This document shows positions 6,522 to 23,848 of a DNA stretch of 48,138 nucleotides, piece by piece. The notes below the pieces were generated by a model, which did no database searches, was not told the origin of the DNA, and saw only the letters and a program-made list of their open reading frames with translations. The stretch's first letter is position 1; each line of letters starts with the position of its first letter. Source of the stretch: Nitriliruptorales bacterium (GTDB lineage Bacteria; Actinomycetota; Nitriliruptoria; Nitriliruptorales; JAHWKO01); the NCBI GenBank assembly GCA_036260415.1, contig DASZZX010000032.1:1-48138 (forward strand), read 5' to 3'. A program made the position numbers and the translations under genes.

Positions 6522-6623
6522 GAGCCCAGACTAAGCACGCAAATCAGGCCTCCGCAATCCTTCCAGGCGTGTCGTGCCGGTGCTCGACCAGCACCTCGAG
6601 GTGTGGGATGCTCGCGATCGCGG

Positions 6624-7223: not shown

Positions 7224-7597
7224 ATGACCCACCCTGACGAGCACGTCGTGCGGCCGCCTGTTCGCGGCCATCAAGGATCGTGATCTCGACCTTGGAGGAC
7301 CAGTTCGCGCCCGACGCGGTCTGGCACGGCGCAGGCGCGCACGTTGCGGGTCGCGAGGCGATCGTGGCGTTGGTGCGCCAACTCGTCCACGCATCCGGTG
7401 GCACGCTCGAGATCGAGTTGCACGACGTCCTCGCGAACGACCGCCACACGGTGGCCCTGCAGGTCACGCGTGCGGAGAGGCATGGTCGCCGGCTCGAGGA
7501 CAGGGTCGTCGACGTCTACCACGTGCGGGACGGCAAGATCACGGATGCCTGGTTCAGCGGCGATCCTCGCATCCAAGACGACTTCTGGTCGTCATGA
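7224..7597 (+). pseudogene. SnoaL-like / NTF2-fold protein, apparently disrupted by two +1 frameshifts near the 5' end
   Basis: Three consecutive frames read together give a normal SnoaL-like N-terminus. They are MTHPDEHVVR (frame of ATG 7224), RLFAAIKDRDLD (next frame, about 7255-7290), and (I)STLEDQFAPDAVWHGAG...DVYHVRDGKITDAWFSGD (track ORF 7280..7597). The intact track ORF alone (105 aa, GTG start) lacks the first helix. Confidence 0.55.
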
Positions 7598-7652
7598 GAA
7601 CCGCCCTCCGGTCGTTCGCGTTGACGGCGGGGGGGATGGAGGTAGCAGCCCG

Positions 7653-8273
7653 TCAGGTGTCCTTCTGCTTCATGATCACGTCGATCGACAAGGCTGCTGC
7701 AAGCGCGAGACTGCGAAGAGGTTGGGTGGAGCCGCCGAGGTCCACGACGTACGTGTCGGCGTCGGTGAGCGCCTCGGCGACCAGGCCTCGCCACTTCTTC
7801 GTGACTTCGGCGACCTTCTGGCCGGAGCCGTCGAGGACGGTGAAGTGCCTCGCGCGCCAGTTCTCCGCGCGCACCTCGCCCAGTCGCATGCCGTCCGGAC
7901 CGTCGAGGGTGAAGCGGGCCTTGCCCACGCGTGCCTGCTTGGCGATCGTGCCCAGGACCGTCCCGTCCGAGCGGCTCACCACGACCTTCCAGCGGAACCA
8001 CGGCTTGTGCAGCCGCAGGACGGGCTGGCCGCTCTGGTCCTCCACGGCCAACGTTGTGGGCAGCATGACGTCGAGATCGCTGAACAGCCGGGTCAAGAAC
8101 TGCAACGGGCTCTGCTCGACCTGCTCGATCGCCCCGATGCGCTGACCGGCGGTGTCGAACAGGCCGTACTGGTTGCGCAGCTCGAAGAGCTTCCGCACCT
8201 GCTCGACCACGATCGCGTCGTGGTCCAGCAACCCCGGCTCCGCCACGACTGCTCCGTCCACGTGCGTGGTCAC
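7653..8273 (-). CDS. phospholipid scramblase family (LURP-one-like) protein
   Basis: Track ORF of 206 aa. It matches my memory of bacterial scramblase-family proteins along the whole length (VVEQVRKLFEL...YGLFD..GQ.IG...QV.QS...RAENWRA..F.V.D..G..VA.V.K.W.GL......AD.Y.......L..L..AA.LS.D...KQ). Confidence 0.85.
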   Translation of the reverse strand: MTTHVDGAVVAEPGLLDHDAIVVEQVRKLFELRNQYGLFDTAGQRIGAIEQVEQSPLQFLTRLFSDLDVMLPTTLAVEDQSGQPVLRLHKPWFRWKVVVSRSDGTVLGTIAKQARVGKARFTLDGPDGMRLGEVRAENWRARHFTVLDGSGQKVAEVTKKWRGLVAEALTDADTYVVDLGGSTQPLRSLALAAALSIDVIMKQKDT

Positions 8274-8335
8274 TGCTGGAACCTACCGCTCGCAGGCGGA
8301 TGTCCCTGTACGGTCTCGGTGGTCCCGATCGAGAA

Positions 8336-9133
8336 TCAGACGGGACGTCGGCAGAGCACGTCGAGTCGCACGAAGGTCTGGTCGTGGGACCCGTCATGAC
8401 GTCCCAACTCGTCGATGCGTTCCTCGGCTCGCAGCAGGAACTGTTCGCGCACCGCGTCCGTGACCCCGGCGACGTACGCCAGCGAGGCCTGCGTACGCAC
8501 GAACCCCAAGAGCTGGTCCTGGTTGAACGGGCGGCGCTGGGCCACCGTCGTGACGCCCGAGCGAGGGATCTCCAACCCGGACTCCTCCAGCAGGTCGAAC
8601 GCGACCCCCGCATCCGGGAACGTCACGGTGGCCGGCCCCAGGTCGAGCTCCGAAGCGATGTCATCCAGCAGCTCCACGACCCCGCGGACGTTGCCTGCGC
8701 CAGCGGACTCCGCGTGGAACCAACCGCCCGGTCGCAGAATCTGCAGGATCGCCTCGTAACAGCGCCCGTAGTCCGCGAGCGGGATCCAGTGGAACACCGC
8801 GCGACTGACCACCAGATCCACGGACGCCGCCGCCACCAGCCTGTCCAGCTCCTGCAATCGGCCCTGGCGGACCTGAAGGTTGTCGGCCTTGTGGGTTCTG
8901 GCGACCTCCAACATCGACGGGTCCGGTTCGACCCCCACGACCCTGCCGTCGGGAACGAGCCTGGCCAGGTGAGCTGTGAACTCTCCACTGCCGCAACCGG
9001 CGTCCACGACATGGTCGCTCGGACGTGGAGGATGCCGATCGACGAACCAGTCATCGAACTGGCGATGATGACCAGCCTGCTCCACGTAGCGATCACCCGC
9101 CCACATGGCCCCCCGCACAGCGCTCTGTGGCAT
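8336..9133 (-). CDS. class I SAM-dependent methyltransferase
   Basis: Frame of track ORF 8336..9751, trimmed to ATG 9133 (MPQSAVRG). SAM-binding motif I is VVDAGCGSGEFT, followed by VVGVEPD and DLVVSRAVFHW. The 206 upstream codons are Arg/Pro-rich shadow sequence. Confidence 0.85.
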   Translation of the reverse strand: MPQSAVRGAMWAGDRYVEQAGHHRQFDDWFVDRHPPRPSDHVVDAGCGSGEFTAHLARLVPDGRVVGVEPDPSMLEVARTHKADNLQVRQGRLQELDRLVAAASVDLVVSRAVFHWIPLADYGRCYEAILQILRPGGWFHAESAGAGNVRGVVELLDDIASELDLGPATVTFPDAGVAFDLLEESGLEIPRSGVTTVAQRRPFNQDQLLGFVRTQASLAYVAGVTDAVREQFLLRAEERIDELGRHDGSHDQTFVRLDVLCRRPV

Positions 9134-9387
9134 CGCGGCTCCTGGGTGATGGGCCCTGACGGTACAGGACGGCCGAACACGTTCGAGCGGGACGCCCAGA
9201 GCGGTCTTCCGCGTTCCGCTCGCTGACCGCGGGCCACGCTGCTCCTCGAGACCCGCGCCGCCGCTGCCGGGTGCATGCCTCGGGAGGCGGCGGTGATCGG
9301 GTACCGGCCGTCGAGCCCGCGGATGCTGCGCGCCGCGCGGCGCCCGCGTGCTAGTGCTTCGGACTGTCGAAGGCGGACGGGATCGAC

Positions 9388-10002
9388 GTGTTCTTCGAGC
9401 CACCACGACCGCACGAGGAGCCGCCGGCGCCCCCTCCCGTGCCGGAGTGGTTCGCTCCACCGGAGGACGAACTTGCGGCGCTGGTCCCGCTCCGCCAGCT
9501 GCTGGTGTCTCAGCAGGGCTTGGCGATCGTGGTCTCCCACGCCGACGTCTTCTCCAACGGCTGCGTGCTGCGGCTGCTGACCGCGGCGCGCCGGACCCCG
9601 GGTATGGGCGACGACGAGTGGATCGACCTGCACGAGGCCATGCTCGGTCACCGCATGCACCGCCGAGTCGTCGCCCGCGAGCTCCCAGCCGACCTGCTGC
9701 GGTGGGGCGTCGCCTACCGTGATGGGCGCAAGGCAACGACCGTGACCACACCGCATCCGTTCGATGCGGATGACTCCGTCAACGGACCGGTGCTGGTGGA
9801 ACACGGCGGGGGAGGTGGGGCCACCCAGGACGGCTGCAGGATGTCGCCGTCGTTGTGGCTGTGGCCGTTGCCTCCGGCCGAGATCTTCCAGCTGGTGTTC
9901 GCCTGGCCGGCCTTCGACATCCCGGAGACGTTCGTCGACATCGACGGGGCCGCGATCGTCTCCGCGGCGGAACGTGTCCTCCCGTTGTTCGACCGTGACT
10001 GA
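9388..10002 (+). CDS. hypothetical protein
   Basis: Track ORF of 204 aa with a GTG start and strong GC3 bias throughout. The composition is protein-like (LWLWPLPPAEIFQLVFAWPAFDIPETFVDIDG). No family recognised. Confidence 0.65.
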   Translation: MFFEPPRPHEEPPAPPPVPEWFAPPEDELAALVPLRQLLVSQQGLAIVVSHADVFSNGCVLRLLTAARRTPGMGDDEWIDLHEAMLGHRMHRRVVARELPADLLRWGVAYRDGRKATTVTTPHPFDADDSVNGPVLVEHGGGGGATQDGCRMSPSLWLWPLPPAEIFQLVFAWPAFDIPETFVDIDGAAIVSAAERVLPLFDRD

Positions 10003-11117: not shown

Positions 11118-11993
11118 ATGACGGCAGTCAGCGCCGCCGCGACCATCCGCCAACGGCTGGGCGGCGGAGCCACGGTCAACATGCCCGGCGTCTACGACGC
11201 ATTGTCCGCCCGCCTCGCCGACGAAGCCGGCTTCGAGGTGCTGTTCATCTCCGGCTACTCGGTGTCGGCGTCCCGGCTGGGCATGCCCGACTACGGCTAC
11301 CTCACGCAGACCGAGATCGTCGACGCCGCCGCGACCGTCTGCACCAACACGAACCGGCCGGTGATCGTGGACGCCGACACCGGCTACGGCAACCCGCTCA
11401 ACGCCGTCCGCACCGCCCAGCTGTTGCACCGGGCCGGCGCGGCGGGGCTGTTCCTCGAGGACCAGCGCTGGCCCAAGAAGTGCGGCCACTTCGCTGGCAA
11501 GCAGGTCGTCGAACGCGGGGAGTGGCTGGCCAAGCTGCGTGCCGTGCTGGACCTGCGCGACGACGGGGTGGACCTGTTCGTGGTGGCCCGCACCGACGCG
11601 CGGGCCGCCGTCTCCCTGGACGACGCCATCGCCCGCGCCAAGGCGGCCCGCGATCTCGGAGTGGACGCGATCTTCGTCGAGGCTCCACAGAGCCGCGAGG
11701 AGCTGGAACGCGTCGCCGGAGAGGTCGACGGCGTGGTGCGCGTTGCCAACATGATCGAGGGTGGCCGGACCCCGTTGCTGACCACCAGGGAGCTGCACGA
11801 CCTGGGGTACGACCTCATCGTCACCCCCCTCAGCGGTCTCCTGGCGACCGCTCGCGCCCTGCGGCAGACCTTCGGGGCTCTGCGCGCGAAGGGCACGCTG
11901 CGCGACGACCTGCAACTGCTCGTCCCGTTCGACGAGTTCGGTGCGGTGGTGGACCTCGACGCCCACCGCCGCCTGGAACAGCGCTACGCCTGA
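11118..11993 (+). CDS. isocitrate lyase / PEP mutase family protein (methylisocitrate lyase- or oxaloacetate decarboxylase-like)
   Basis: Frame of track ORF 10752..11993, trimmed to ATG 11118 (MTAVSAAATIRQRL). Family motifs: PGVYDALSARL, VDADTGYGN, EDQRWPKKCGH (K-K-CGH signature), ARTDA. Confidence 0.85.
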   Translation: MTAVSAAATIRQRLGGGATVNMPGVYDALSARLADEAGFEVLFISGYSVSASRLGMPDYGYLTQTEIVDAAATVCTNTNRPVIVDADTGYGNPLNAVRTAQLLHRAGAAGLFLEDQRWPKKCGHFAGKQVVERGEWLAKLRAVLDLRDDGVDLFVVARTDARAAVSLDDAIARAKAARDLGVDAIFVEAPQSREELERVAGEVDGVVRVANMIEGGRTPLLTTRELHDLGYDLIVTPLSGLLATARALRQTFGALRAKGTLRDDLQLLVPFDEFGAVVDLDAHRRLEQRYA

Positions 11994-12059
11994 TCCCCTC
12001 TTCGGTGCCGCGGCCGGTCTCGACGCTCACCCTCGACCTGGAACAGCGCTACGCCTGAT
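11972..12059. repeat. 23-bp perfect direct repeat (CCTGGAACAGCGCTACGCCTGAT) duplicating the 3' end of the preceding gene
   Basis: The copies are at 11972-11994 and 12037-12059. Flanking similarity extends the repeat to about 45 bp (CTCGACGC[C/T]CACC...CCTGG). Copy 1 holds the stop codon of 11118..11993. Copy 2 holds the ATG (12058) of the endopeptidase gene. Confidence 0.8.
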
Positions 12060-12693
12060 GGCACGCGTGCACGTGCGGCTGCGGGCGGGCGCGCCGTGGT
12101 GGCTAGGGTGCCGTCCGTGTCGCCCCGCCTGCCCCCGCGATCCGGAGGGAGCCCTGCCACGACTGGTCGCGGGTGTCGGCAACCCCTGGTCGGGAGACCT
12201 CGATCTCGGCCCCCGTTTCGTCCGCCGCTACCGCGGGCATGGATGGCCGGCCGACGTCGTCCTGGAGGAACTGACCGTGGCCGCTCAGCGTGTCCTGCAC
12301 CGGCTGTGGGAGCTCCGTCCCGCGGCGCTGGTGGTGGTGGCGGGCTTCCCACGAGGCGACCACCCCGGGACGGTGCGCCGCTACCGGCCTTCCTGCGACA
12401 CCACCGACGAGGCCGACCTCCAGCGACGCCTCGGCGAGAGCGCCGCCGGGGTGATCGACCTCGACCACATCCTCGCGGTGACCAGCTACTTCGGGGCGCT
12501 GCCGGCCGACACCGTCGTGATCGAGGTGGAGCCGGCCCAGACGGTGTTCTCCGAGCGGCTGTCGGCCACGGTCTCGGCACGGCTGCCAGACCTGCTCGCA
12601 CTGGTCGACGGGGAGGTCCGCCGCCGCGCACCCGCCCGCCAGTTGCGGGGTGCCGCGTGCGACCGCCCCGGCCTCCAGGACGGCGGCCTCTGA
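12058..12693 (+). CDS. [NiFe]-hydrogenase maturation endopeptidase (HycI/HybD/HoxW family)
   Basis: Frame of track ORF 11941..12693. Family-like motifs: LVAGVGNPWSGDLDLGP near the N-terminus, PGTVRRY, and AGVIDLDHILAVTSYFGALPADTVVIEVEP. Start taken as ATG 12058; about 30 residues precede the conserved GVGN, so the start is uncertain. Confidence 0.75.
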   Translation: MARVHVRLRAGAPWWLGCRPCRPACPRDPEGALPRLVAGVGNPWSGDLDLGPRFVRRYRGHGWPADVVLEELTVAAQRVLHRLWELRPAALVVVAGFPRGDHPGTVRRYRPSCDTTDEADLQRRLGESAAGVIDLDHILAVTSYFGALPADTVVIEVEPAQTVFSERLSATVSARLPDLLALVDGEVRRRAPARQLRGAACDRPGLQDGGL

Positions 12694-12700
12694 CGGCTGC

Positions 12701-13057
12701 TCACTCAGCGGCGGGGTCGCTGGGTAGCGCGTCGACGAGCCGCTGCAGGTCGTCCTTGGGGATGGCGACCAGCCCCACCTCCCGAGCCTGCGCCTCCACC
12801 GCGGGATCCAGGAACGCCGAGAACAGCACGATCGGTGTCTCGATGCCGTCGTCGCGCAGCTGCCGGGCGACCTCGATCCCGGTCATGCGCGGCATCCGCT
12901 GGTCGAGCACGATGGCGTCGTAGGTGTTTGTCCCGCAGCGCGCGAGCGCCTCCTGCCCTGAGGACGCCTCGTCCACCGTCCAGTCCCGTCGGCTCAGCGC
13001 GAGACGGAGCAGGAGCCGGACGTCCTCCTCGTCGTCGACGAGCAGCACCCGCTTCAT
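12701..13057 (-). CDS. response regulator, receiver domain only (CheY-like, no output domain)
   Basis: Track ORF of 118 aa. REC signatures: VLLVDDEEDV, AIVLDQRMPRMTG (phospho-Asp), PIVLFSAF, IPKDD. The ATG overlaps the kinase stop (TGATG). Confidence 0.9.
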   Translation of the reverse strand: MKRVLLVDDEEDVRLLLRLALSRRDWTVDEASSGQEALARCGTNTYDAIVLDQRMPRMTGIEVARQLRDDGIETPIVLFSAFLDPAVEAQAREVGLVAIPKDDLQRLVDALPSDPAAE

Positions 13058-14802
13058 CAGCCGACCTCCCCTGTAGCACGTGGGAGCACCAAGGTGAACC
13101 GGCTCCCCTCCCCGGGGCGGCTGGCCACCCGCACGTCCCCACCCTGGCTGCGCATGATCTGCCGGGTCATGTACAGGCCCAGGCCGGTGCCCTCGACACC
13201 GGTCGTGTCGGGGCTGCGCGTGAACTTATCGAACAGCTTCGCCTGGTCGGCGGGCGGGATGCCGGGCCCCCGGTCGATGACGCTGAGCTCCACGTTGCGA
13301 CCCGCCTCGCGCGCGGTGATCGTCACCGGCGCGTCGGCGGGAGCGTACTTCAACGCGTTGGAGACCAGGTTGCCCAGGGCCAGGTCCAGCCGGCTCTCGT
13401 CGGCCAGCACCGGCGGCAGGTCGTCAGGCACGTCGACCTCGACCCTCCGCGACGCGGAGGTGCTGTCGGTCACCGCGGCCACGATCGCGCGCACGTCGGT
13501 GGGGACCGGCGACACCGACAGATCGAGCCCCGCCTCGAGACGGATGTAGTCGAGGAACTGCACCACGAGCCTCCGCAGACGGCCCACCTGCCGTCCCAGA
13601 CCCAGGCGCATCTGCTGCAGCTCGGCCGGGTCGTGGCTTTCCCCGAACCCCTCCAGCGTGTCCACCAGTCCCACGAGCACCGACAGGGGCGTCTTCATGT
13701 CGTGGGAGATGGCGGCCAGGATCTCGTTGCGGTAGCGGGCCGCCTCCTCCCGGGCGCGGTGTTCGACCAGCCTGTCGCGCAGCAATGCGTTGGACACGCT
13801 GAGGGCGAGGCGGGCGGCGACCTCCTCCATCAGCCCGACGGTGGACTCGTCCACCGACCCCGGCTCCGTGGACACGACCACCAGCGCACCGACCGTGCCC
13901 GTCTCCGTGTGCAGCGGTAGCACCGCCGCCGATCGCACCTGTTCCCATCCCGGCCCGATCAGCGGGAACCCCCGCTCGACGGTCGGCGCGTGCACGGTTT
14001 GACCGCCGGTGATGACCCGTGAGAGCGCCGTGCCGGGCGGAGGTGCGGTGTGCTGCAGACCCACCAGCAGGTCGCCGTCGGGGGCTCCCGGGGACATCGA
14101 CACGCGTCGGATCACCCCCTCGTCGCTCAACACCACGGCGAGGCTGCAGCCGGTGTCCTTCTCCAGCCGTTCGACGATCCCGTCGAGCGCGTGGCGCGGG
14201 TCCAGGGCGTCCGCCAACTGGGCGCCGACGTGGGCCAATAGCCGCCACCGCGACTCGGCTGCCTCCACCTCGCGCAGGAGACGGTGCACCTGGCTGAGGT
14301 CGCGTGCCGCGTGGATGGCACCGTGCACCTTGCCGTCCGCGTCGCGCACGATCGCACAGGACAGGCTGACCTGGCGCCCGCGACCGTCGGGGCGCGCGAC
14401 CGCAGTTTCCAGCGACAGCTGCCCGTCGGGCGCGGCCTCCATCAGGCCCCACGGGGTCGCGGGGACGCGGTCGCGGTACAGCGTGGCGGCGTCGGCCCCG
14501 AGCAGCTCCTCCATCGTCCTTCCGAGGAGCTGCGTGGCAGCCGCGTTGGCGCGAGTCACCGCGCCGTGCGGGTCGACGACCAGCACCGCGTCCGACAGCG
14601 ATCCGAACAGTCGGTCGAGCAGGGCTTCCGTCTGGACGCGGCGCAGGTGCTCGCGGTCCAGCTCCAGTTGGACGTCGGCCAGCGCGTCGAGCGCCTGCGA
14701 CAGCTGACGGGTGACGGTCCGCTCGTCACCGCGGGCGGCCGCGTCGTGCCCAGAGTCCTGCGATCCGCCGCCTCCGGAGTCCGCGCGGACGTCGTCGCTC
14801 AT
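13057..14802 (-). CDS. cytoplasmic sensor histidine kinase (coiled coil-PAS-GAF-HisKA-HATPase)
   Basis: Track ORF of 581 aa with no TM segment. PAS-like region: LSDAVLVVDPHGAVTRANAAATQLLG...IVRDADGKVHGAIHAARD. A GAF-like region of about 150 aa follows. H-box AAISHDMKTPL. N, G1 and G2 boxes: LGNLVSNALKY, DRGPGIP, GTGLGL. The ATG lies 1 nt after the large-subunit stop. Confidence 0.9.
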   Translation of the reverse strand: MSDDVRADSGGGGSQDSGHDAAARGDERTVTRQLSQALDALADVQLELDREHLRRVQTEALLDRLFGSLSDAVLVVDPHGAVTRANAAATQLLGRTMEELLGADAATLYRDRVPATPWGLMEAAPDGQLSLETAVARPDGRGRQVSLSCAIVRDADGKVHGAIHAARDLSQVHRLLREVEAAESRWRLLAHVGAQLADALDPRHALDGIVERLEKDTGCSLAVVLSDEGVIRRVSMSPGAPDGDLLVGLQHTAPPPGTALSRVITGGQTVHAPTVERGFPLIGPGWEQVRSAAVLPLHTETGTVGALVVVSTEPGSVDESTVGLMEEVAARLALSVSNALLRDRLVEHRAREEAARYRNEILAAISHDMKTPLSVLVGLVDTLEGFGESHDPAELQQMRLGLGRQVGRLRRLVVQFLDYIRLEAGLDLSVSPVPTDVRAIVAAVTDSTSASRRVEVDVPDDLPPVLADESRLDLALGNLVSNALKYAPADAPVTITAREAGRNVELSVIDRGPGIPPADQAKLFDKFTRSPDTTGVEGTGLGLYMTRQIMRSQGGDVRVASRPGEGSRFTLVLPRATGEVG

Positions 14803-14803
14803 A

Positions 14804-16642
14804 TCAGTCCAGGCCGCAGGCGCAGCTGGTCGCCTCCCGCACGACCGTGCCCCCGCCGGTGTGCAGGTGGACGGCGCAGGGAAGGCACGGATCGAAGCTG
14901 CGAACCGTCCGCAGGATGTCGATGCCGACGAAGTTGTCGGGGTCGGACACCTCTTCCAGGATGGGGGTGTTAAGCACGGCTTCCTCGTAGGGACCGGGGA
15001 CGCCCCACGGATCGCGGGGGGAGGCCATCCAGGTCGACGGGGTCAGGATCTGGTAGTTGGCCAGCCGCGCGTCCTCCACCCGGCAGTAGTGGGTGAGCGT
15101 CCCTCGGCCCGCCTCCCAGAAGCCGACGCCCACGCCGTCGGCCACCTCGAACGCGGAGCTCATCTCGGTCCGTTCGCTGCGGAACACGTCGAAGGCGCGC
15201 AGCAGGAACGTGTAGCCGGCCATCAGACAGTAGGCCACGTGCACGGCGCGGGCGCGGAGCCGTTCGAAGGCGTTGACCACGTCGGGGACACGCCAGGTGA
15301 TGACCGTCTCGGGCAGCGTGCTCTCCGGCACCGTGATCCGCAACAGCCCGGGCTCGGTCCGGATGAACTCGGTCTCGACCAGCCCGGCTGCCACGGTGAT
15401 CCACTGGCGGGCCAGGGGGCCGGACTCCGCGGGGCGGCGATCCCACCGCGGGGCGGTCGCCCACGAGTAGCGGCCTTTCCAGCTGGTGGCCTCCGGCCGG
15501 GGCAGCGTGCGCTTGTTCGACGGGTGGAAGGGGCTGAGCGGCGCCCCGTCCGGCGTTGTGGTGGCACCATCCGCCCAGCGTTCGTAGAACGAGTGGTCGA
15601 CGAACTCCTCGATGCCCAGGTCGATCTGCCGCAGCCGGGTCGTACGCAGTTCCCCGTCGATGACCACCCCGGGCGTGGACAGGCGGTTGCGTCCCCACGT
15701 GTCGGCGTGGGCGTAGGCGGCGTCGTAGACGTCGGGATCGTCCCAGATCCCGGTGCTGATCAGGTTGGCCTGGCGGATCCCGACCTGGCGGTAGGCGGGG
15801 TCGGCGGCGTAGAAGAACTCGATCAGGTCGTCCCACAGAGTCGCCACCCGCTTGGCGTAGTCCAGTAGGCGGACCATGCGCGCCAGCACCTGGTTGAGGG
15901 TGGCATGGTCCAGGCGGGTCCCGAGCCCGGCCGGGACGACAGCGGAGGGGTGGGGGTACTTGCCGTAGATGAGGGACACGATCTCCCGGCCTGCCCGGGT
16001 CACCTCCAGGGCCTCGGTGACGAACTCCCCGCGCAGCGGGTTGAGTCCCGTCATGATCTCCGCGATCGTGACCTTGCCGTGCGTGCGGGCGTGGGGGGCG
16101 GCCGCACGCTGGGCTCGCTGCCACAGCCGGGGGTTGGTCCGCGTCACCATCTCCTCGGAGTAGTCGGGCCCGGCCAGGAGGAAGAGGTGCAGGCAGTGGT
16201 CGTAGAGCAGCTCGGCCGCCTCGGCCAGGTTGCGGGCGATCACCGTCAGCGGTGGCGGCGCCACGCCGAAGGTCATCTCCAGCGCCATCGCCGCGCACGT
16301 GGAGTGCACCCCTCCGCACACCCCGCACGCCCGGGACGAGATCTCGATCGCTTCCAGCGGATCGCGCCCGCGCAGGATCAACTCGTAGCCACGGAACAGC
16401 ACCGCCTGGGAGTGGGCGGTCGTCACCGCCCGGGCGTGGAGGTCCACCGTGGTGTGGAACGCCAAGGCGCCTGCGACCCGTGTGACCGGGTCGATGGCGA
16501 ACTCCCTGCCGGCCGCCTCCGACGGGTCCGGATCCGGCTGCGGGGTGTCCCTCGGCCCCCTCTCGAGACCGAACCCGCGGCTGTCGTCCAGGTGGGGCTC
16601 GCCGGCCTCGTCGAAGACGATCGGGAGGTTCTCGAAGCACAC
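14804..16642 (-). CDS. [NiFe]-hydrogenase large subunit (atypical)
   Basis: Track ORF of 612 aa with a GTG start. L1 motif RACGVCGGVH and L2 motif DPCLPCAVH provide the four Ni-Fe cysteines. An 18-aa tail follows the His (LH-TGGGTVVREATSCACGLD). The N-terminal IDPVTRVAGAL replaces the usual R-I/V-E-G-H. Confidence 0.9.
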   Translation of the reverse strand: MCFENLPIVFDEAGEPHLDDSRGFGLERGPRDTPQPDPDPSEAAGREFAIDPVTRVAGALAFHTTVDLHARAVTTAHSQAVLFRGYELILRGRDPLEAIEISSRACGVCGGVHSTCAAMALEMTFGVAPPPLTVIARNLAEAAELLYDHCLHLFLLAGPDYSEEMVTRTNPRLWQRAQRAAAPHARTHGKVTIAEIMTGLNPLRGEFVTEALEVTRAGREIVSLIYGKYPHPSAVVPAGLGTRLDHATLNQVLARMVRLLDYAKRVATLWDDLIEFFYAADPAYRQVGIRQANLISTGIWDDPDVYDAAYAHADTWGRNRLSTPGVVIDGELRTTRLRQIDLGIEEFVDHSFYERWADGATTTPDGAPLSPFHPSNKRTLPRPEATSWKGRYSWATAPRWDRRPAESGPLARQWITVAAGLVETEFIRTEPGLLRITVPESTLPETVITWRVPDVVNAFERLRARAVHVAYCLMAGYTFLLRAFDVFRSERTEMSSAFEVADGVGVGFWEAGRGTLTHYCRVEDARLANYQILTPSTWMASPRDPWGVPGPYEEAVLNTPILEEVSDPDNFVGIDILRTVRSFDPCLPCAVHLHTGGGTVVREATSCACGLD

Positions 16643-16645
16643 GCC

Positions 16646-17458
16646 CTACCTCCCCGCGGCGGCCACCAACGGCAACGTGCGGTCGGGGAAGTCTGGACGG
16701 GTGCACCCGTTGCAGTCGCCGCCCACCACCGCGCAGCCACCGAGCCGATTGATCCAGCCGCGGTGGGGGACCGGGCAGGGTGCGGTGAGCGGCTCGGCCG
16801 GTTCGCGTCGCACGCCGTGGACCCTCGCCCGGCGCAGCGGCGTCTCCTCCGCGTACAGCCAGCGCGGCCGACCCAGTTCGTCGATGTCGAAGGGCACCAC
16901 CCCTTCGAGGTGAAGGACCAGGTACTGGACGGTCTCGAGGAAGGCGTCGCCGCTGGGCGCACACCCCGGCACGTTGACCACAGGGAGACCTGCGCGGCTG
17001 CGGAAGCCCGCGCCGAGCAGCGCCCCGACACCGGTCGCGCCGGTGACGCTGCCGGTCGCGGCCGGTATGCCCCCCCACGTGGCACACGTCCCGATGGCCA
17101 CCACGACCTCGGCGCCCGTCGAGAGGTCGCTCACCCACCGCTCGACCGTGACCGGCGCACCGTCGCGCTGGCCGAGACGGGAGAAGCTACCGGTGCCGGC
17201 ACGCGACTGGTCGAGCATCGAACCTTCGACCACCAGCAGGTAGGGGTCGATCTCTCCACGCCGTGCACGTTCGAGCCGTTCCACGTAGTCCCGTCCCGCC
17301 TCGAGCACGAGTTGCGGGTGGACGATCCGTATGTCGGACCTGCTGAGCGTGCCGGCCAGCAGCTCCTCGAGTCGAGGTGACGTCGCACCGAGCACGGACA
17401 TGGTGCAGCCGTCGCAGCCGCCTCCGTGCAGCCACACCACCGTCACCGCGTCGCTCAC
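16646..17458 (-). CDS. [NiFe]-hydrogenase small subunit, no Tat signal
   Basis: Frame of track ORF 16646..17995, trimmed to GTG 17458 (G-run SD about 9 nt upstream). Motifs: WLHGGGCDGC, GTCATWGGIP, VPGCAPSGD and the C-terminal CPVPHRGWINRLGGCAVVGGDCNGC. It has 8 Cys in total. No RRxFxK leader. The stop TAG lies 3 nt before the large-subunit GTG, and a GGGAGG SD sits inside its 3' end. Confidence 0.85.
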   Translation of the reverse strand: MSDAVTVVWLHGGGCDGCTMSVLGATSPRLEELLAGTLSRSDIRIVHPQLVLEAGRDYVERLERARRGEIDPYLLVVEGSMLDQSRAGTGSFSRLGQRDGAPVTVERWVSDLSTGAEVVVAIGTCATWGGIPAATGSVTGATGVGALLGAGFRSRAGLPVVNVPGCAPSGDAFLETVQYLVLHLEGVVPFDIDELGRPRWLYAEETPLRRARVHGVRREPAEPLTAPCPVPHRGWINRLGGCAVVGGDCNGCTRPDFPDRTLPLVAAAGR

Positions 17459-17623
17459 CCGCTGCACCCCCCCAGTCGGCCGGGGACCCCCGTTCGGGTG
17501 CCGTGACGGTAGGCGATGTCGAGGTGGGCCGCTCGCAGCGCTCGCGAGGGCCGTTCCCCCGCTGGTAGGTGCCCGCCGGGTCGCCGTGTGGGACCCTGTC
17601 GACAGCGAACAGGGAGCGAGCCG

Positions 17624-17986
17624 GTGCGCATCCAACCGGGTCAGCTGATCGCCCTCGGCTACGGCAAGTACGTGCGGTCCGACGAGGTCGTGGCGATCGA
17701 ACCGATCGTCGAGGACCGTGGTCCTGGGCGGCGGACCGACGTCTGGGTCCGGGGGGTCCCGGAGCCGATCGTGGCCTCGCGGTCGGACGCCGCGATCGCC
17801 GACGACCTGGTCACACCGGCCGAGGAGGCTGCCAGGATGCAGCAGCTTCGCTCCATGCTGGCACGCGTGCTGGGGGCCCTCGACGGTGTGCCTCCGATGC
17901 TCCGCCGGCTGCTGGCGGACGAGACCGGTGTCGACGTCGCCGCGTTGGCGGCGGAGGGGCGGCGGGTCCTGGACCGCGCCGTCTGA
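17624..17986 (+). CDS. hypothetical protein (weak by-eye resemblance to DUF370/RemA fold)
   Basis: Frame of track ORF 17516..17986, trimmed to GTG 17624 (GGGAG 7 nt upstream). The frame is GC3-rich. LIALGYGKYVRSDEVVAIEP...GRRTDVWV...IVASRS..AIADDL loosely recalls the RemA pattern LINIGFGN.V...R..AIV.P....GRRT. The functional call has low confidence. Confidence 0.55.
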   Translation: MRIQPGQLIALGYGKYVRSDEVVAIEPIVEDRGPGRRTDVWVRGVPEPIVASRSDAAIADDLVTPAEEAARMQQLRSMLARVLGALDGVPPMLRRLLADETGVDVAALAAEGRRVLDRAV

Positions 17987-18120
17987 GACGTCCACGGACG
18001 GTGGCGTCCGGGGCGGTGCCAGCCGCCAGGGGCGGGCGGTCGGGGCGGCGGTCGCAGACCGCTGGCAGCGGCGTCGCGGAGAGCTTCGTAGGATGCGGCG
18101 TCCCGTCCCGAGGAGCTTGC

Positions 18121-18483
18121 ATGAAGGTCGCCTACGTCCTCGCGAACCCCAGCGCCGCCGCCTACAAGGTGGGGCAGATGGTCCTGCCGCAGCTGGAGGA
18201 GGGTTCGCACGGTGCCGACGTCGTCGGCATGTTCTTCTTCGACGACAACAACTGGGTCCTGCGCGCGGGCGACCCGCTCGGCGAGCGTCTGGCTCGTCAG
18301 GCGACGGAACGCGGCATGCTGCTGATGATGTGTGACCAGTGCGCGCTCGCCCGCGGGCTGGCGGAGGGCGAGCCGGGGGACTGCAAGCCCATGAACGTGG
18401 TCGACGGTGTCACGGTGGGCTGCTTCCCGGACCTCTACGCGGCCCTCTCGACCGATCCCCCGGACCACGTCATCACGCTGTGA
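18121..18483 (+). CDS. DsrE/DsrF-like (sulfur-relay fold) family protein
   Basis: Frame of track ORF 17569..18483, trimmed to ATG 18121 (AGGAG 6 nt upstream). 120 aa. MKVAYVLANP...VVGMFFFDDN...LLMMCDQCALARG is typical of small DsrE-like proteins. Confidence 0.7.
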   Translation: MKVAYVLANPSAAAYKVGQMVLPQLEEGSHGADVVGMFFFDDNNWVLRAGDPLGERLARQATERGMLLMMCDQCALARGLAEGEPGDCKPMNVVDGVTVGCFPDLYAALSTDPPDHVITL

Positions 18484-18590
18484 CCGTCCGGGCACGACGG
18501 AGCCTCCGGTGGCCTGGCTTGCTGCACGCCGTCGGGTGAAACGCGACCGCGCCGCCGTCATCGACGCGCTGGCCGCCCCAGCGCGGGCCG

Positions 18591-19520
18591 TCAGCGGTGG
18601 AGAGCGAGCTCGGCGAGTGGCTCGCCGGCGTGCAGCCGGCGGACGACCTCCGCGAGCCGGCCCGCCAGGCTGATCACCTCCACGGTCAGCTCCCGAGGCT
18701 CGACCACCAGGCTGTCGGTCGTCCACAGGCGCCCGATCGGTACCTGCGACAGCCGTTCCTCGGCCGGCCCGACCAGCAGGCAGTGGGTCGCCGCCACCAT
18801 CACGGGCGCGGACGCGCCCGCGTCGAGCAGCACTCTGACGGCGGACGCGATCGTGCCCCCGGTGGCCACGATGTCGTCGATCACCACGGGCGTGCGGCCG
18901 GTGACGTCGCCGATCAGGCCGGTGGTCTGCACCTCGTCACCGGACACGCGCGTCTTGCGGACGATGGCCACCTCGAGACCCAGGTGTGCGGCGTACACCT
19001 CGGCGAGCTTCGCCGCGCCCAGGTCGGGGGCGACCAGCACGGCAGGCCCGTCGAGCGCTGCCGCCAGCGCCTCAGCCAGGTCGGGCACCGCGGTGGTGGT
19101 CTCCACCGGGACGCTGAAGATCGATTCGACGTCCGGGGTGTGAGGATCCACCACCACGATGCGGTGCACGTGCGACGCGCTCAGGAGGTCGGCGACCACG
19201 CGCAGCGCCACCGGTTCCCCCGGCGCGGTGCGCCGGTCCTGACGGGCGTACGCCAGGTAGGGGATCACGGCGTTGAGACGGGCGGCGCCCGCCCGGTACG
19301 CGGCGTCCGCCAGCAGGATCAGCTCCGCGAGGTGCTCCTGGACCGGCGGTCCGGTCGACTGCACCAGGTATACGTCCTCGTCACGGACGTCCCCGGACAG
19401 CTCGACGTGGATCTCGCCGTCCGGGAAGCGCGACAGCTCCCTCCGCAGCGGCTCGACACCGAGCTCGGCACCGATCTTCTCGGTGAGGCGCTGGGAAGCA
19501 CCTCCGCTGACCAGCTGCAT
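18591..19520 (-). CDS. prs: ribose-phosphate pyrophosphokinase
   Basis: Frame of track ORF 18591..19982, trimmed to ATG 19520 (MQLVSGGAS). Motifs: FPDGEIHV, IPYLAYARQDRR, VVDPH, and the PRPP loop VVIDDIVATGGT. Confidence 0.9.
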   Translation of the reverse strand: MQLVSGGASQRLTEKIGAELGVEPLRRELSRFPDGEIHVELSGDVRDEDVYLVQSTGPPVQEHLAELILLADAAYRAGAARLNAVIPYLAYARQDRRTAPGEPVALRVVADLLSASHVHRIVVVDPHTPDVESIFSVPVETTTAVPDLAEALAAALDGPAVLVAPDLGAAKLAEVYAAHLGLEVAIVRKTRVSGDEVQTTGLIGDVTGRTPVVIDDIVATGGTIASAVRVLLDAGASAPVMVAATHCLLVGPAEERLSQVPIGRLWTTDSLVVEPRELTVEVISLAGRLAEVVRRLHAGEPLAELALHR

Positions 19521-19612: not shown

Positions 19613-20827
19613 CTAGCCCGCCCCTCCGGGGCGATCCACGGACCGGCCGGCACGCCAGACGCGGTGCGGTCGCAGCCCCCACGCCCAGCCGAAGGCGCCC
19701 TCGTGCTCGGCGTCCCACCACACCAGGTCCGCGCGTTGGCCGACGGCCACGGTGCCACGGTCGGGCAGGCGCAGGGAACGCGCCCCGCCGACCGTGGCCG
19801 CCCGCAGAGCCTCGTGGACCGACAGTCCCAGCCCGCCCACCGCCAGCGCCACCACCAGGCTCATGCTGGTGACCCCGCTGGTGCCGGGGTTGTGGTCGCT
19901 GCCGAGCGCGAGGGTGGTGCCGGCCGCGCGCAGGGCCGCCACGTCGGGTCGGGCGCCCATGGACAGCGCGGTGGCCGGGCACAGGGTGGCGACCACGCCG
20001 GCTGCGGCCAGGGCGGCGGCGTCGTCGCGGGTGCTGCGCAGCAGGTGGTCGGCCGACGCCGCCCCTAGCTCCGCGGCGAGCCGCGCCCCGCCCGTGCGGG
20101 CCAGTTCGTCGGCGTGGATCCGCGAGGTCAGCCCGGCAGCCGCGCCGGCCGTCAGGATGCGATGGGCCTGCCGCACCGAGAAGTAGCCGCGGTCGCAGAA
20201 CACGTCACATCCGTCGGCCCCCTCGGCGGCCGCGTCGCCGCTCCAGCCGGCGGCTCGCTCGGTGTAGCTGTCGGCGTCGCCGGCGGCCTCCGGCGGCACG
20301 GCGTGAGCGGCCAGGAAGGTGATGGACAGGTCGGGCAGCGCGGGGTTGCGTCGGAGGCGGTCCAGCAGCCGCACGTCGGCCAGCTCCCCGTCGCGCTCGA
20401 GGTGGTAGCCGGTCTTCGCCTCGACGGTGGTGGTGCCCTGCCACAGCCAGGACGCGAGCCGCCGTTGCACCAGCGTCTCCAGGTCGGCCGCGGCGGCCGT
20501 CCGCGTGGCCCGTACCGTCGCCCAGATGCCGGCGTCCGTTCCCAGATCGTCGTAGGCCCGGCCGGCGCTGCGGTCGGTGAACTCGGCGAACCGCTGCCCG
20601 GCGTAGACCGGGTGGGTGTGGGCGTCGATCAGGCCGGGGGTGACCAGCCCGCCGCCGACGTCCACCTCCTCGGCGACGCGGGCTCCGAGCCCCGTCGGTG
20701 GACGCTCGTGGTCGCCGCCGATCCAGACGATGCGGTCGCCCTCGACGCACAGTGCGGCGCCCACCCGCACCGGCGGGTCGACCGCCGTGATCAGCCGGCC
20801 GATGTTGCGTAGCAGGATCGCGGTCAC
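19613..20827 (-). CDS. hutI: imidazolonepropionase
   Basis: Frame of track ORF 19613..21304, trimmed to GTG 20827, which overlaps the hutF stop (GTGA). Amidohydrolase motifs: GLIDAHTHPV, TTVEAKTGY, IHADE, GSDHNPG. Confidence 0.9.
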   Translation of the reverse strand: MTAILLRNIGRLITAVDPPVRVGAALCVEGDRIVWIGGDHERPPTGLGARVAEEVDVGGGLVTPGLIDAHTHPVYAGQRFAEFTDRSAGRAYDDLGTDAGIWATVRATRTAAAADLETLVQRRLASWLWQGTTTVEAKTGYHLERDGELADVRLLDRLRRNPALPDLSITFLAAHAVPPEAAGDADSYTERAAGWSGDAAAEGADGCDVFCDRGYFSVRQAHRILTAGAAAGLTSRIHADELARTGGARLAAELGAASADHLLRSTRDDAAALAAAGVVATLCPATALSMGARPDVAALRAAGTTLALGSDHNPGTSGVTSMSLVVALAVGGLGLSVHEALRAATVGGARSLRLPDRGTVAVGQRADLVWWDAEHEGAFGWAWGLRPHRVWRAGRSVDRPGGAG

Positions 20828-22194
20828 GCCCCGACCGCCCGTCCGATCGCCCGGTGCAGCTCCCCACGCACGTCCTCCACCAGCCGATGACGGCGGTCCT
20901 CGACCACCAGACGGCCGCCTACGACCACGTGGGTCACGTCGGCGGCGGTCGCAGCGAACACGACGAAGGCGGGGCCGTCCTGGCGTCGGAAGCCCGCCAG
21001 CCGCGGGGAGGCGAGGTCGACCGCGACCAGGTCGCAGAGCCGGCCACGGGCGAGCTCGCCACCGTCCCATCCCAGCGCCAGCATCCCGGCGCGGGTGGCC
21101 GCGTGCAGGAGCTGCTCGGGGCGGTGGCGGCCACGCTCCCCGCTCGCCAGCCGCTGGTTGAGCTCGACCGCCCGCGCCTCCTCGAACAGGTCCACCATGG
21201 CGTGGCTGTCCGACCCGACGCACAGTGGGCTGCCGGCCGCGTGCAGCGCCGCCGCCGGACCGACCCCGTCCCCGAGGGCCCGCTCGGTGGTGGGGCACAG
21301 GCATGCCGCGCTGCGGCTGGAGCCGAGCAGCCGGATGTCGTCGTCGGTGAGGTGGGTGGCGTGCACGGCGGTGGTGCGGGCGCCGAGCACGCCGCGCTCG
21401 GCCAGCAGCCCCGCGGGGGTGCGGCCGGTGGCGACCAGGCAGGCCGCGTTCTCGGCCGGTTGCTCCGAGACGTGCACGTGCAGGGGGGCGCCCCGGTCGG
21501 CCGCCCAGTCGCGCACCACCTCCATGGCGGTGGGATCGACCGCGCGCACCGAGTGGATCGCTGCGCCCAGCGCGACGTGACCGTCGGGGCGCCGGCTCGA
21601 GGCCCGTTCGGCCCAGCGCTGGACGTCGCCGTCGGCGAAGCGACGCTGTACCCCCTGCAGCGGCTGGTCGAACCCGCCTCGCAGGTAGCAGGTGTCGAGC
21701 AGGGTGACGCGGACCCCCGCATCGGCGGCCGCCTCGGCCAGGGCCGCCTGCATGACGTTGGCCTCGGCGTAGGGTCGCCCCGACGGCGCGTGGTGCAGGT
21801 AGTGGAACTCGCCGACCGTGGTAACCCCGGCCAGGGCCATCTCGCAGTAGGTGGCGCAGGCCAGGTCGCGGTAGTGGTCGGGGTCGAGACGGTCGGCCAG
21901 CGCGTACATCCGGTCACGCCAGGTCCAGAAGCTGCCGCCGCACGTCTCGACGCGGCCGCGCAGGGCGCGGTGGAAGGCGTGGCTGTGCGCGTTGGCGAGG
22001 CCAGGCAGGACCAGCCCCGGTAGGCGTGTGGCGCCGGGCGGTGGTGGGCGGTCCTCGCCCACCGCCGTGATGCGGTCCTCGGCCGTCTCGATCACCACAC
22101 GGTGAGCGACCCGTCCACCCGCCGGGTCGGGCAGCCATGCCAGGTCGGCGAACCACGCGCTCGCCCCTCGGCGGACGTCGCCGGGCTCAGCCAT
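20824..22194 (-). CDS. hutF: formimidoylglutamate deiminase
   Basis: Track ORF of 456 aa. Amidohydrolase-type motifs: [33 protein letters not shown]. Its position between hutU and hutI fits this call. Confidence 0.85.
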
Positions 22195-23848
22195 CGTTCA
22201 GCATCGGGGAGGTCACGCCGCGCGAGCGGGCGACCTCGCGGGCGCGGTCGTAGCCGGCGTCGGCGTGGCGCAGCACGCCTGTGGCCGGGTCGTTGGTCAG
22301 TACCCGCTCGAGCTTGCGCTCCGCCAGCTCGGTGCCCTCGGCCACCGCGACCTGGCCGGCGTGGATCGCCTTGCCGATGCCCACACCCCCGCCGTGGTGG
22401 ACGCTCACCCACGACGCCCCCGACGAGGTCGCGACGAGGGCGTTCAGGATCGGCCAGTCGGCGATCGCGTCGGACCCGTCGAGCATCCCCTCCGTCTCGC
22501 GGTACGGCGACGCCACCGAGCCGGCGTCGAGGTGGTCGCGGCCGATCACGATCGGCGCGCCGACCTCGCCCGTGCGCACCAGGCGGTTGAAGGCCAGGCC
22601 CGCGCGGTGACGCTCGCCGTAGCCCAGCCAGCAGATCCGGGCCGGCAGGCCCTGGAAGGCCACGCGCTCGCCGGCCAGCTCCAGCCACCGGGCCAGCGCC
22701 CTGTCCTCGGGGAAGAGGTCGGCCACTACCCGGTCGGTGACGTGGATGTCGCGCTCGTCGCCCGACAGCGCCACCCAGCGGAAGGGTCCCTTGCCCTCGC
22801 AGAACAGCGGCCGGATGAACGCTGGCACGAACCCCGGGTAGGCGAAGGCGTCGGCGAACCCGCCCAGCTTGGCTTCCCCCCGCAGGTTGTTGCCGTAGTC
22901 GAACACCACCGCACCCGCCTTCTGGAACCCGACCATCGCCGCGCAGTGGGTCGCTATGGAGGCGCGCGCCCGCTGGACGTACCCCCTCGGGTCGCGGACG
23001 CGCAGCTCGGCGGCTTCGTGCAGGGTCAGGCCCGCCGGGACGTAGCCGTGGAGCGGGTCGTGGGCGGAGGTCTGGTCGGTGACGGCATCCACGTCCACAC
23101 CGCGGCGCAGCAGCTGGGGGAGCACCTCCGCGGCGTTGCCGACCACGCCGACCGACAGCGGCCGGCCCTGCCGCCTCGCCGTCAGGCTCAGGTCCACCGC
23201 GTCATCGAGGGAGTCCGCGACCTCGTCGAGGTAACCGGTCCGCACCCGACGTCGGACGCGCGCCGGATCAACCTCCACGCAGAGGACCACGCCCTCGTTC
23301 ATGGTCACGGCCAGAGGCTGCGCCCCGCCCATGCCCCCGAGGCCCGAGGTGAGGGTGAGCGTCCCTCGCAAGCTCTCGCCGAAGCGCTGGCGGGCGAGCG
23401 CGGCGAACGTCTCGTAGGTGCCCTGCAGGATCCCCTGGGTGCCGATGTAGATCCAGGAGCCGGCGGTCATCTGCCCGTACATCGTGAGGCCTGCTGCCTC
23501 GAGCTCCCAGAAGGTCTCCCAGTCCGCCCACTCCGGCACCAGGAGCGAGTTGGCCAGCAGCACCCGGGGCGCCCACTCGTGCGTGCGCAGGACCCCGACC
23601 GGCTTCCCGGACTGCACTAGCAAGGTCTCGTCGTCCTGCAGCGCCCGCAGCGAGCGGACGATCGCGTCGAAGGCCTCCCACGACCGCGCCGCCCGACCCG
23701 ACCCCCCGTAGACCACCAGGTCCTGTGGCCGCTCGGCGACCTCAGGGTCGAGGTTGTTCATCAGCATCCGCAGCGCGGCCTCCTGCGGCCAGCCGCGGCA
23801 GCTGCACACGCGGCCGCGCGGCGCCCTCACCTGTCGCACACCCGCCAT
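22187..23848 (-). CDS. hutU: urocanate hydratase
   Basis: Frame of track ORF 22187..23932, trimmed to ATG 23848. Motifs: RAPRG...[41 protein letters not shown], and the highly conserved tail [14 protein letters not shown]. Confidence 0.92.

Follow-up and report, generated by a model that had tools for sequence, protein, structure and literature searches.

A [NiFe]-hydrogenase closely packed with a two-component system in a Nitriliruptorales bacterium: a candidate soluble H2 sensor beside groups 1l and 1m

Organization of the hydrogenase-kinase cassette

The window analyzed here is a stretch of 48,138 nt from a Nitriliruptorales bacterium (positions 1-48,138 of contig DASZZX010000032.1, assembly GCA_036260415.1), in which four tightly coupled minus-strand genes encode a [NiFe]-hydrogenase followed by a two-component system. 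The first gene (16646-17458) specifies a hydrogenase small subunit of 270 amino acids, identified by Pfam Oxidored_q6 (PF01058, E = 3e-22), alignment, a motif census and an AlphaFold2 (AF2) model. The second (14804-16642) specifies a [NiFe]-hydrogenase large subunit of 612 amino acids, recognized by Pfam NiFeSe_Hases (PF00374, E = 2.6e-71), alignments and its place in the tree. They are followed by a PAS-GAF histidine kinase and by a receiver-only response regulator of 118 amino acids (12701-13057). A fifth gene, on the plus strand (12058-12693), faces the receiver gene and encodes a divergent member of the hydrogenase maturation protease superfamily (TIGR00072, 53 bits with a cutoff of 47.45). 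With a G+C content of 72%, the window gives noisy lists of open reading frames (ORFs), and genes were selected by third-position G+C.

The close packing of the four genes had been described in a first-pass annotation, and all its coordinates proved exact when re-read. The small-subunit stop codon (TAG, 16648-16646) is followed by GGC and then by the GTG start of the large subunit at 16642, ahead of which lies a Shine-Dalgarno-like run, GGGGAGG. The large subunit ends in TGA (14806-14804), and a single T separates it from the kinase ATG at 14802. The kinase and receiver genes overlap as TGATG, with the A at 13057 common to the stop and the start. On the other side of the receiver, its stop (12703-12701, minus strand) and that of the protease-like gene (12691-12693, plus strand) are convergent with 7 nt between them, which leaves no room for a terminator, so the two transcripts must overlap. 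A scan of 11900-18700 found no promoter-like sites on either strand and no terminator-like sites on the minus strand of the cassette; the only two terminator-like matches overlap at ~18210-18230 on the plus strand, outside the cassette. The operon boundaries are those given by gene spacing alone. No transmembrane segment was found in any of the five cassette proteins (maximum KD19 ≤1.4).

The same five genes are found in three other loci, L001, L084 and L170, with unrelated flanking genes. When the window, L001 and L084 were compared, the five cassette genes were the only ones in common and the flanks differed. Between the window and L001, identity is 79% for the large subunit, 74% for the small subunit, 65% for the receiver (REC) protein, 58% for the protease-like protein and 56% for the kinase. 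Because the five genes recur together amid unrelated surroundings, their arrangement is more than chance. Searches with phmmer of HypA-F/X, HoxK/G/B/C and HofK/G from pHG1 against all window ORFs found neither hyp genes nor a second hydrogenase in the 48 kb, in line with the earlier observation that maturation genes and a target uptake operon are missing from the window.

Phylogenetic placement of the large subunit

Related loci were collected by scanning one genome per species together with metagenome contigs, which gave 160 loci. Contig look-ups added 11 more (seven, then L170-L173), and the synteny, small-subunit and tree analyses cover the first 167. Near-identical loci from different assemblies are included (L007/L087 and L084/L085). 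Two sets of large subunits are used below: clade A, 26 near-full-length sequences including that of the window, and tier B, about 140 sequences at ~52% identity. Neighbor-joining (NJ) trees were built with a self-assembled reference set containing HofG (group 1h), HoxG (group 1d) and HoxC (group 2b) from pHG1 and no HydDB references; bootstraps were run on 67 sequences.

Clade A was monophyletic in 60/60 NJ bootstraps, and clade A, tier B and group 1h fell together in 60/60 as well. The mean identity of clade A large subunits is 54% to tier B, which is 1l/1m-like, 44% to group 1h, 31% to HoxC (group 2b) and 30% to HoxG (group 1d). Tier B members were assigned by gene content. In L087 and L009, five short ORFs separate the subunit genes, as in group 1l; L087 additionally encodes a Rieske protein and HycI. 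L014 has the gene set of group 1m, with a HycI-like protein, NifU, HycI, TPR and BirA-like proteins and two small ORFs. The possibility that clade A is simply group 1m was considered and rejected, as L014 carries the published 1m gene set yet falls in tier B, not in clade A.

Comparisons with other collections point the same way. Against solved structures, the large subunit matched chain C of 5AA5, the group 1h enzyme of Cupriavidus necator, best (492 bits), and all others, including group 1d, [NiFeSe] and Huc enzymes, scored at most 192 bits. Against plasmid records, identity was 41-45% to the group 1h genes of Streptomyces, Mycobacterium, Methylocystis and pHG1, and ~28-29% (tblastn) to HupV-type and group 1d genes. 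The databases also contain hundreds of closer relatives, at 58-83% identity, all from metagenomes or metagenome-assembled genomes (MAGs) and all from uncultured carriers. The closest are P0002, from a Logan assembly (83%), and P0003, from a Nitriliruptorales MAG (79%). Each hydrogenase subunit is represented by more than 120 distinct clusters at 90% identity, and in sequences 55-100% identical, from at least five phyla, the eight cysteines and the Ni-Fe ligands are kept.

By its sequence relationships, the window hydrogenase is thus placed outside groups 2b, 1h, 1l and 1m, in a distinct clade beside 1l and 1m. The first-pass annotation had suspected an uncharacterized subgroup, and the position outside the characterized clades (60/60) agrees with this. 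Its choice of groups 2a-2e as reference relatives did not hold, the relevant relatives being 1l and 1m (54% identity). We found no description of a kinase-linked clade of 1h/1l/1m type in the literature searched, which covered few subscription journals, so a prior description is possible.

The catalytic motifs of the large subunit are intact. The L1 motif RACGVCGGVH (C106, C109) and the L2 motif DPCLPCAVH (C586, C589, H592) are invariant in 15 clade members, and the alignment shows that the arginine of the GRG motif and all Ni-Fe ligands are conserved. A C-terminal tail of 20 residues follows H592, as had been noted earlier, and contains a conserved CxC (C607, C609). The clade and the 1l/1m-like enzymes have in common an N-terminal MCFxNLPIxFD extension (Cys2; window 16600-16642) and the R[DE]xxxCxC tail (14804-14863), both absent from the 1h, 1d and 2b references. 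That these two elements are conserved suggests that the tail, which is normally removed, has a part in binding metal or in maturation. The most notable of the few positions that distinguish clade A from tier B is residue 539 (~nt 15026-15028), where the asparagine of a TWN motif is replaced by methionine in 96% of the clade members and in 20/141 tier B sequences; most 1l/1m-like enzymes keep the asparagine, as do the 1h, 1d and 2b references.

A small subunit with two clusters

The window small subunit contains exactly eight cysteines, which an alignment with tier B, HofK, HoxK and HoxB assigns to two Fe-S clusters. C15, C18, C125 and C166 align with the proximal-cluster ligands in a flavodoxin-like domain, and the motifs CDGC, GTCA and PGCAP in which they lie are kept across clade A. 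C228, C242, C249 and C252 correspond to the medial cluster, with the pattern C..GGC..CxGC likewise kept. The stretch that would carry the distal ligands (H..C, then C.....GC.G) is a short cysteine-free linker in the clade A proteins, and a C-terminal extension of ~80-100 residues is gone. No Tat (twin-arginine translocation) leader is present, the first cysteine being residue 15.

The loss of the distal domain is a property of the whole clade. A motif census found the distal-cluster motif in none of the 21 clade A small subunits and in 112 of the 117 from tier B, and, counted from the start of the alignment, the median length is 267 amino acids for clade A versus 360 for tier B. The best 120 database homologues of the window protein are all short as well (187-353 amino acids). 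An AF2 model built from 38 of these short homologues reached a pLDDT of 87.9 and a pTM of 0.89; its best match in the PDB was 5AA5_A, with a TM score of 0.85 on the query and 0.67 on the longer, partly covered target. The distal-cluster loss is the most diagnostic feature of the cassette and was missing from the first-pass annotation. Two of the small-subunit homologues (P0224, P0227) are annotated with an HTH_17 domain (PF12728) N-terminal to Oxidored_q6, possibly a fusion or a start-site artefact.

The kinase and its hydrogenase-linked input module

The kinase is soluble, and Pfam finds in it PAS_4 (residues 67-174), GAF (201-335), HisKA (358-425) and HATPase_c (468-576) domains. The transmitter part (residues 358-576; 13075-13731, minus strand), recognized by Pfam and motif positions, has His367 within SHDMKTP and intact N, G1, F and G2 boxes. 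The GAF domain, already pointed out as an addition to the usual architecture, lies at 13798-14202 on the minus strand (E = 1.3e-9). Within the first 155-200 residues, a helix followed by a PAS fold is predicted; this helix-PAS module spans residues ~31-185 (14248-14712, minus strand) by phmmer and profile scores.

The helix-PAS module is orthologous in every clade locus (138-260 bits by phmmer and profile), and we propose that it is the hydrogenase-coupling domain. Downstream sequence of at least 300 nt is available for 24 clade A loci, and in 23 of them the module begins 24-280 nt beyond the large-subunit gene and in the same orientation; in the exception, L009, the PAS-module gene is transcribed divergently from the small-subunit gene. 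Loci L170-L173 add four cases in which the module follows the large subunit, for a total of 27/28 informative loci from at least five phyla. The PAS-module gene is thus a conserved neighbor of the hydrogenase, and the idea of a cytoplasmic hydrogenase heterodimer serving as input to a PAS kinase, put forward from the window sequence, is strongly supported by comparative genomics. The refuting condition set in the first-pass annotation, a large subunit nested in a characterized clade together with a kinase/REC pair that is not a conserved neighbor, does not apply. Near the ~140 tier B hydrogenases, no such module was found unless a clade A cluster adjoins (L007, L087).

Outside the clade, the best match to the PAS-module profile is the N-terminal module of HoxJ (65.6 bits, E = 4e-18), which scored above the unrelated PAS domains present in those loci. 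The kinase of L089 aligns with HoxJ from end to end at 25% identity (E = 2e-23). For this small comparison set, the similarity is no more than suggestive of a specific common origin of the clade input module and that of HoxJ. A profile search of a large database returned 47 matches, mostly partial fragments.

As judged by Pfam and spacing, the GAF domain occurs mainly in Actinomycetota members and also in the Rokubacteria hybrid kinase of L007 (GAF_2, E = 2e-17). It is absent from the short Chloroflexota and Gemmatimonadota kinases of L006, L008, L088 and L089. The distance from the PAS domain to the kinase core is ~1000 nt with GAF versus ~550 nt without it.

Outputs and neighboring group 1l operons in related loci

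While the input module is constant, what follows it varies. A PAS-GAF-HisKA kinase with a REC-only regulator is present in the window, L001, L084, L170 and L172, and the same kinase type is combined with a PadR-REC regulator in L003 and L086. Short, HoxJ-size PAS-HisKA kinases occur in L089, together with a REC-only regulator and a further REC-GAF-PAS kinase, and in L088, together with a REC-PAS-STAS regulator. The module is part of a hybrid kinase-REC in L007 and L087, and L009 has a PAS-HisKA_3 kinase with a NarL-type (REC-GerE) regulator. In L005, a Solirubrobacteraceae MAG, a single ORF (4236-6974) encodes PAS-GAF-PAS-GGDEF-EAL in place of the kinase. A constant input joined to shuffled outputs is the usual behavior of sensory modules.

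The regulator of L088 (11069-12244) has a PAS domain that scores 136 bits on the input-module profile, and by this similarity a second copy of the hydrogenase-coupling PAS lies within the regulator. In L083 (11962-14624, GCA_030447785.1), a PAS-GAF-PAS-GGDEF-EAL arrangement also replaces the kinase, with that gene and the small-subunit gene split by frame changes. The locus is part of a 449-kb MAG contig, and the splits are probably assembly indels. L083 was dropped as evidence for a GGDEF fusion, the PAS module and the GGDEF-EAL part being in different frames; the claim rests on L005.

Several clade loci adjoin a group 1l operon. In a Caldilineaceae MAG (L009; 1-7022, minus strand, and 7151-9842, plus strand), the kinase, the REC-GerE regulator and a MerR gene lie directly upstream of the group 1l operon and are co-directional with it, with the sensor subunit genes divergent. 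In a Promineifilaceae MAG, also Chloroflexota (L006, 4462-15279), the sensor genes, the PAS kinase, a NarL-type regulator and the group 1l operon are all co-linear. The operon consists in both of a full-length small subunit, short ORFs (five in L009) and a large subunit. In L007 and L087, the sensor cluster is convergent with the group 1l operon. The clade A clusters themselves contain no partner genes for Rieske, cytochrome, transmembrane or diaphorase proteins.

The receiver and the protease-like protein

The receiver has an intact phosphoacceptor set (D8/D9, D52, S80, K101) and, as reported earlier, no output domain: Pfam recognizes only Response_reg (residues 4-102) in its 118 amino acids. 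REC-only orthologues are found in L001, L084, L170 and L172, and its REC domain is ~45% identical to that of the PadR-REC regulators in Acidimicrobiia loci. In L172, the REC-only gene is flanked by stand-alone PadR genes. No PadR-type or other DNA-binding partner is encoded in the window. Given the similarity to PadR-REC and the PadR genes in L172, a PadR-type partner for the receiver is a reasonable guess by analogy. The first-pass annotation had favored a phosphorelay rather than a transcription factor as the output. This is not established, as the relatives use PadR-REC, NarL-type or REC-only regulators flanked by PadR.

For the fifth gene, a dedicated endopeptidase had been suggested. Its adjacency to the cassette and its membership of the TIGR00072 superfamily stand, whereas the protein is divergent and Pfam HycI does not match it. 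It is 58% identical to the convergent gene of L001 and 52% to that of L084, and scores 215 bits to the L170 gene. We take Glu16, Asp62 and His93 of HybD to be the canonical metal ligands of the maturation endopeptidase. Two of these three positions, those aligned with Glu16 and Asp62, are non-acidic in the window protein, which has GDLDLG for GDDGFG and VVAG for VDA, and a nearby histidine is not aligned. The GDLDLG/VVAG pattern also occurs in L001 (11970-12503), in L084 (13843-14394) and in the first protease of the group 1m locus L014 (9895-10494), where it sits beside a second, canonical HycI. The divergent subtype may be a non-canonical protease or a chaperone.

Genomic surroundings

A SaoD/DsrE-family protein (NF040913, 185 bits) is encoded on the plus strand at 18121-18483, a short way upstream of the cassette, and a flavoprotein similar to sulfide:quinone reductase/FCSD farther off at 42227-43420 (plus strand); together these hint at a sulfur oxidation capacity. 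Between the SaoD/DsrE-family gene and the cassette, and divergent from the small-subunit gene, is an ORF of 156 amino acids (17516-17986, plus strand; third-position G+C 0.84-0.90) with no match in Pfam or NCBIfam. A chemosensory-type cluster at 29348-38626 (plus strand) encodes CheW, CheR, a CHASE3-MCP, a hybrid CheA (Hpt-HATPase-CheW-REC), REC-CheB and a REC-REC-PAS-HisKA-HATPase hybrid kinase. No stand-alone CheY was seen in it, and it resembles a Che-like pathway whose output is something other than motility. A link between the cassette receiver and this cluster found no support beyond generic REC similarity. The remaining neighbors, at 19613-27905 and 38715-42375, include urocanase and two amidohydrolases (histidine utilization), phosphoribosyl pyrophosphate synthetase, a CopA-type P-ATPase with CsoR, and ZnuABC with a Fur-family regulator. 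None of these housekeeping genes is conserved beside the cassette in relatives.

A candidate H2-sensing hydrogenase

From gene order and sequence features, we consider the cassette likely to specify a soluble regulatory [NiFe]-hydrogenase for sensing H2, with both physical and translational coupling to its two-component system. A sensor is indicated because one input module is joined to varied outputs, because the loss of the distal cluster removes the normal exit for electrons, because a group 1l operon adjoins the system as a candidate target in L009, L006, L007 and L087, and because the kinase resembles HoxJ. A wider proposal, which we offer as a real possibility rather than as our expectation, is that the clade represents an undescribed class of H2 sensors independent of group 2b. 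Such a class would stem from the O2-insensitive, high-affinity 1h/1l/1m radiation, combine a minimal two-cluster small subunit with an obligate HoxJ-like helix-PAS input that has been joined in evolution to kinases or to c-di-GMP enzymes, and act as the missing regulator of trace-H2 oxidation in Actinomycetota, Chloroflexota, Acidobacteriota, Gemmatimonadota and Rokubacteria. It might sense H2 near atmospheric concentrations.

In the mechanism that we envisage, H2 would be split at the Ni-Fe site and reduce the short two-cluster wire. The helix-PAS module of the kinase would read the redox or conformational state of the heterodimer, probably docking on the face exposed by the missing distal domain. 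The outcome would be a shift in the autophosphorylation of His367 and in transfer to, or dephosphorylation of, Asp52 of the receiver. Since the receiver has no DNA-binding domain, it would act through a partner, possibly a stand-alone PadR-type protein. By analogy with the relatives, the system would ultimately act on the expression of a group 1l/1m uptake hydrogenase whose genes lie elsewhere in the genome. The GAF domain may supply a second input, and the protease-like protein probably takes part in maturation of the tailed large subunit.

A number of observations weigh against this interpretation. H2 as the signal is what we infer from gene order and distal-cluster loss, and an enzyme with two clusters might nonetheless be catalytically active with a soluble acceptor. 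The window contains no target hydrogenase, hyp genes or DNA-binding partner. The large subunit is barely differentiated, with only six positions separating clade A from tier B, and tier B itself was monophyletic in just 24/60 NJ bootstraps, so that the exact sister relationship of clade A is tentative. Features tied to sensing in group 2b are missing here. HoxC ends at CTVH without a tail, whereas the window protein keeps 20 residues after the corresponding histidine. We take isoleucine and phenylalanine at two positions to be the narrow-channel residues of group 2b, in which glutamine also replaces the L1 histidine. HoxC has CGIC, YLF and SQS, whereas the window large subunit has CGVC and HLFLL, that is, valine and leucine, and keeps the L1 histidine in GGVH.

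The close likeness of the large subunit to catalytic 1l/1m enzymes, its intact active-site motifs and its retention of a C-terminal tail with a protease homologue, as in catalytic enzymes, would also be expected of a working soluble uptake (or evolving) hydrogenase, with the co-transcribed two-component system regulating the hydrogenase instead of listening to it. We regard this as improbable. The distal cluster that would feed an acceptor is absent from every member of the clade (0/21), and the clusters offer none of the usual electron-transfer partners listed above. Moreover, a fixed PAS input with swapped outputs, GGDEF-EAL among them, is the signature of a sensor input rather than of an operon regulator, and the regulator in the window has no DNA-binding domain. 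Codon overlap or gaps of 1-3 nt fit stoichiometric co-production.

Similarly unlikely, in our view, is a heterodimer that senses redox state, O2 or CO and reports this to the PAS-GAF kinase, with no physiological role for H2. Redox state and small ligands are common signals of PAS and GAF domains, the two-cluster wire and the conserved CxC tail are compatible with a redox switch, and genes of H2 metabolism are missing from the window. On the other hand, the Ni-Fe ligands and the arginine of GRG are conserved, and the co-conservation of a maturation-protease homologue speaks for maturation of the catalytic site. Group 1l uptake operons adjoin the system in several phyla, making H2 the natural signal. 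A decaying 1l/1m paralogue beside a kinase by accident, to which the shortened small subunit and the split or frameshifted genes of L083 might be attributed, is very improbable and already disfavored by ligands and cysteines conserved in at least five phyla, the more than 120 clusters per subunit, the confident AF2 model and the 27/28 kinase linkage amid unrelated flanks, and the L083 splits possibly stem from MAG-assembly indels.

To our knowledge, the proteobacterial group 2b system is the only one in which H2 sensing by a [NiFe] enzyme is understood. In the literature searched, we found nothing on how trace-H2 oxidation by group 1h/1l/1m enzymes is regulated in soil and water bacteria. If the clade is a second, independently derived sensor lineage, it would give a direct handle on this regulation, with candidate targets adjoining in the Chloroflexota and Rokubacteria loci. 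It would also be a natural experiment in which a catalytic hydrogenase became a sensor by losing the distal cluster rather than by narrowing the gas channel. As a small, soluble, probably O2-insensitive module responsive to H2 and with swappable outputs, it would be attractive for biosensor design. Metagenomic surveys may count the large subunits of this clade as H2-oxidizing capacity, which is probably wrong.

Comparison with known hydrogenase systems

The closest relatives of the window enzyme are the high-affinity [NiFe]-hydrogenases of groups 1l (Hyl) and 1m (Hhm) (bioRxiv 10.1101/2020.08.06.239558; PMC9561532), with a mean identity of 54%. They have in common with it the L1 motif ISSRACGVCGGVH, the MCFxNLPIEFD extension, the CxC tail and a proximal cluster with four cysteines. 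They differ in their full-length, three-cluster small subunits (112/117) and in having no adjacent PAS signaling gene, and clade A is separately monophyletic (60/60). The papers that define 1l and 1m mention no kinase or sensor. In group 1l, five short genes for transmembrane proteins lie between the subunit genes, and a Rieske protein, HylE, and a three-cluster HylS are encoded; the window subunit genes are 3 nt apart with none of these. Group 1m has adjacent hhmS and hhmL with HybD, an Fe-S assembly protein (NifU), TPR and BirA-like proteins, two small transmembrane proteins and a full-length small subunit. Only the adjacency of the subunit genes and the protease homologue are common to the window, where the remaining 1m genes are absent and the small subunit is shortened. 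The protease-like gene matches the first, divergent protease of the group 1m cluster in L014.

Group 1h (Hhy; PDB 5AA5) provides the best relative of solved structure for both subunits and is likewise cytoplasm-facing and Tat-less. However, identity is 44%, the L1 motif is TSRICGICGDNH rather than ISSRACGVCGGVH, and HofK has CDGD, with three cysteines and one aspartate as ligands, where the window protein has CDGC. HofK has three clusters versus two here, and the 1h large subunit has no N-terminal extension.

The sensory [NiFe] groups listed in HydDB are only 2b, which is kinase-linked, and 2c, which is putative and linked to diguanylate cyclases. Group 2c and the putative sensory, PAS-linked [FeFe] groups C/D resemble the present clade in that a hydrogenase is coupled to cyclic di-GMP or PAS signaling (compare L005 and L083). 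They are unrelated lineages, the [FeFe] enzymes belonging to a different catalytic superfamily and 2c being set apart without a reference sequence compared.

In its logic, the cassette parallels group 2b, the HoxBC-HoxJ-HoxA system of C. necator and HupUV-HupT-HupR, where a soluble, Tat-less heterodimer is likewise encoded beside a soluble PAS kinase and a regulator. The adjacent HoxJ/HupT-type kinase is matched here by a kinase of HoxJ-like architecture that begins 1 nt after the large-subunit stop. In group 2b, the uptake hydrogenase that is presumably controlled adjoins the system, as it does in relatives of the window cassette, and the position of hoxABCJ beside the membrane-bound hydrogenase genes on pHG1 resembles that of the sensor cluster beside a group 1l operon. 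The lineage differs, since the clade large subunit is 31% identical to HoxC and groups with 1h/1l/1m in 60/60 bootstraps. The regulator differs as well: HoxA and HupR are of NtrC type, whereas the window has a REC-only protein (PadR-REC or NarL-type in relatives), and HoxA matches the REC domain only. For the group 2b regulatory hydrogenase, three [4Fe-4S] clusters and a narrow gas channel have been reported (PMC5665086). HoxB has the distal ligands and a C-terminal extension, whereas the window small subunit has neither and holds two clusters. The system is the known logic of regulatory hydrogenases realized in a different lineage by a different structural solution.

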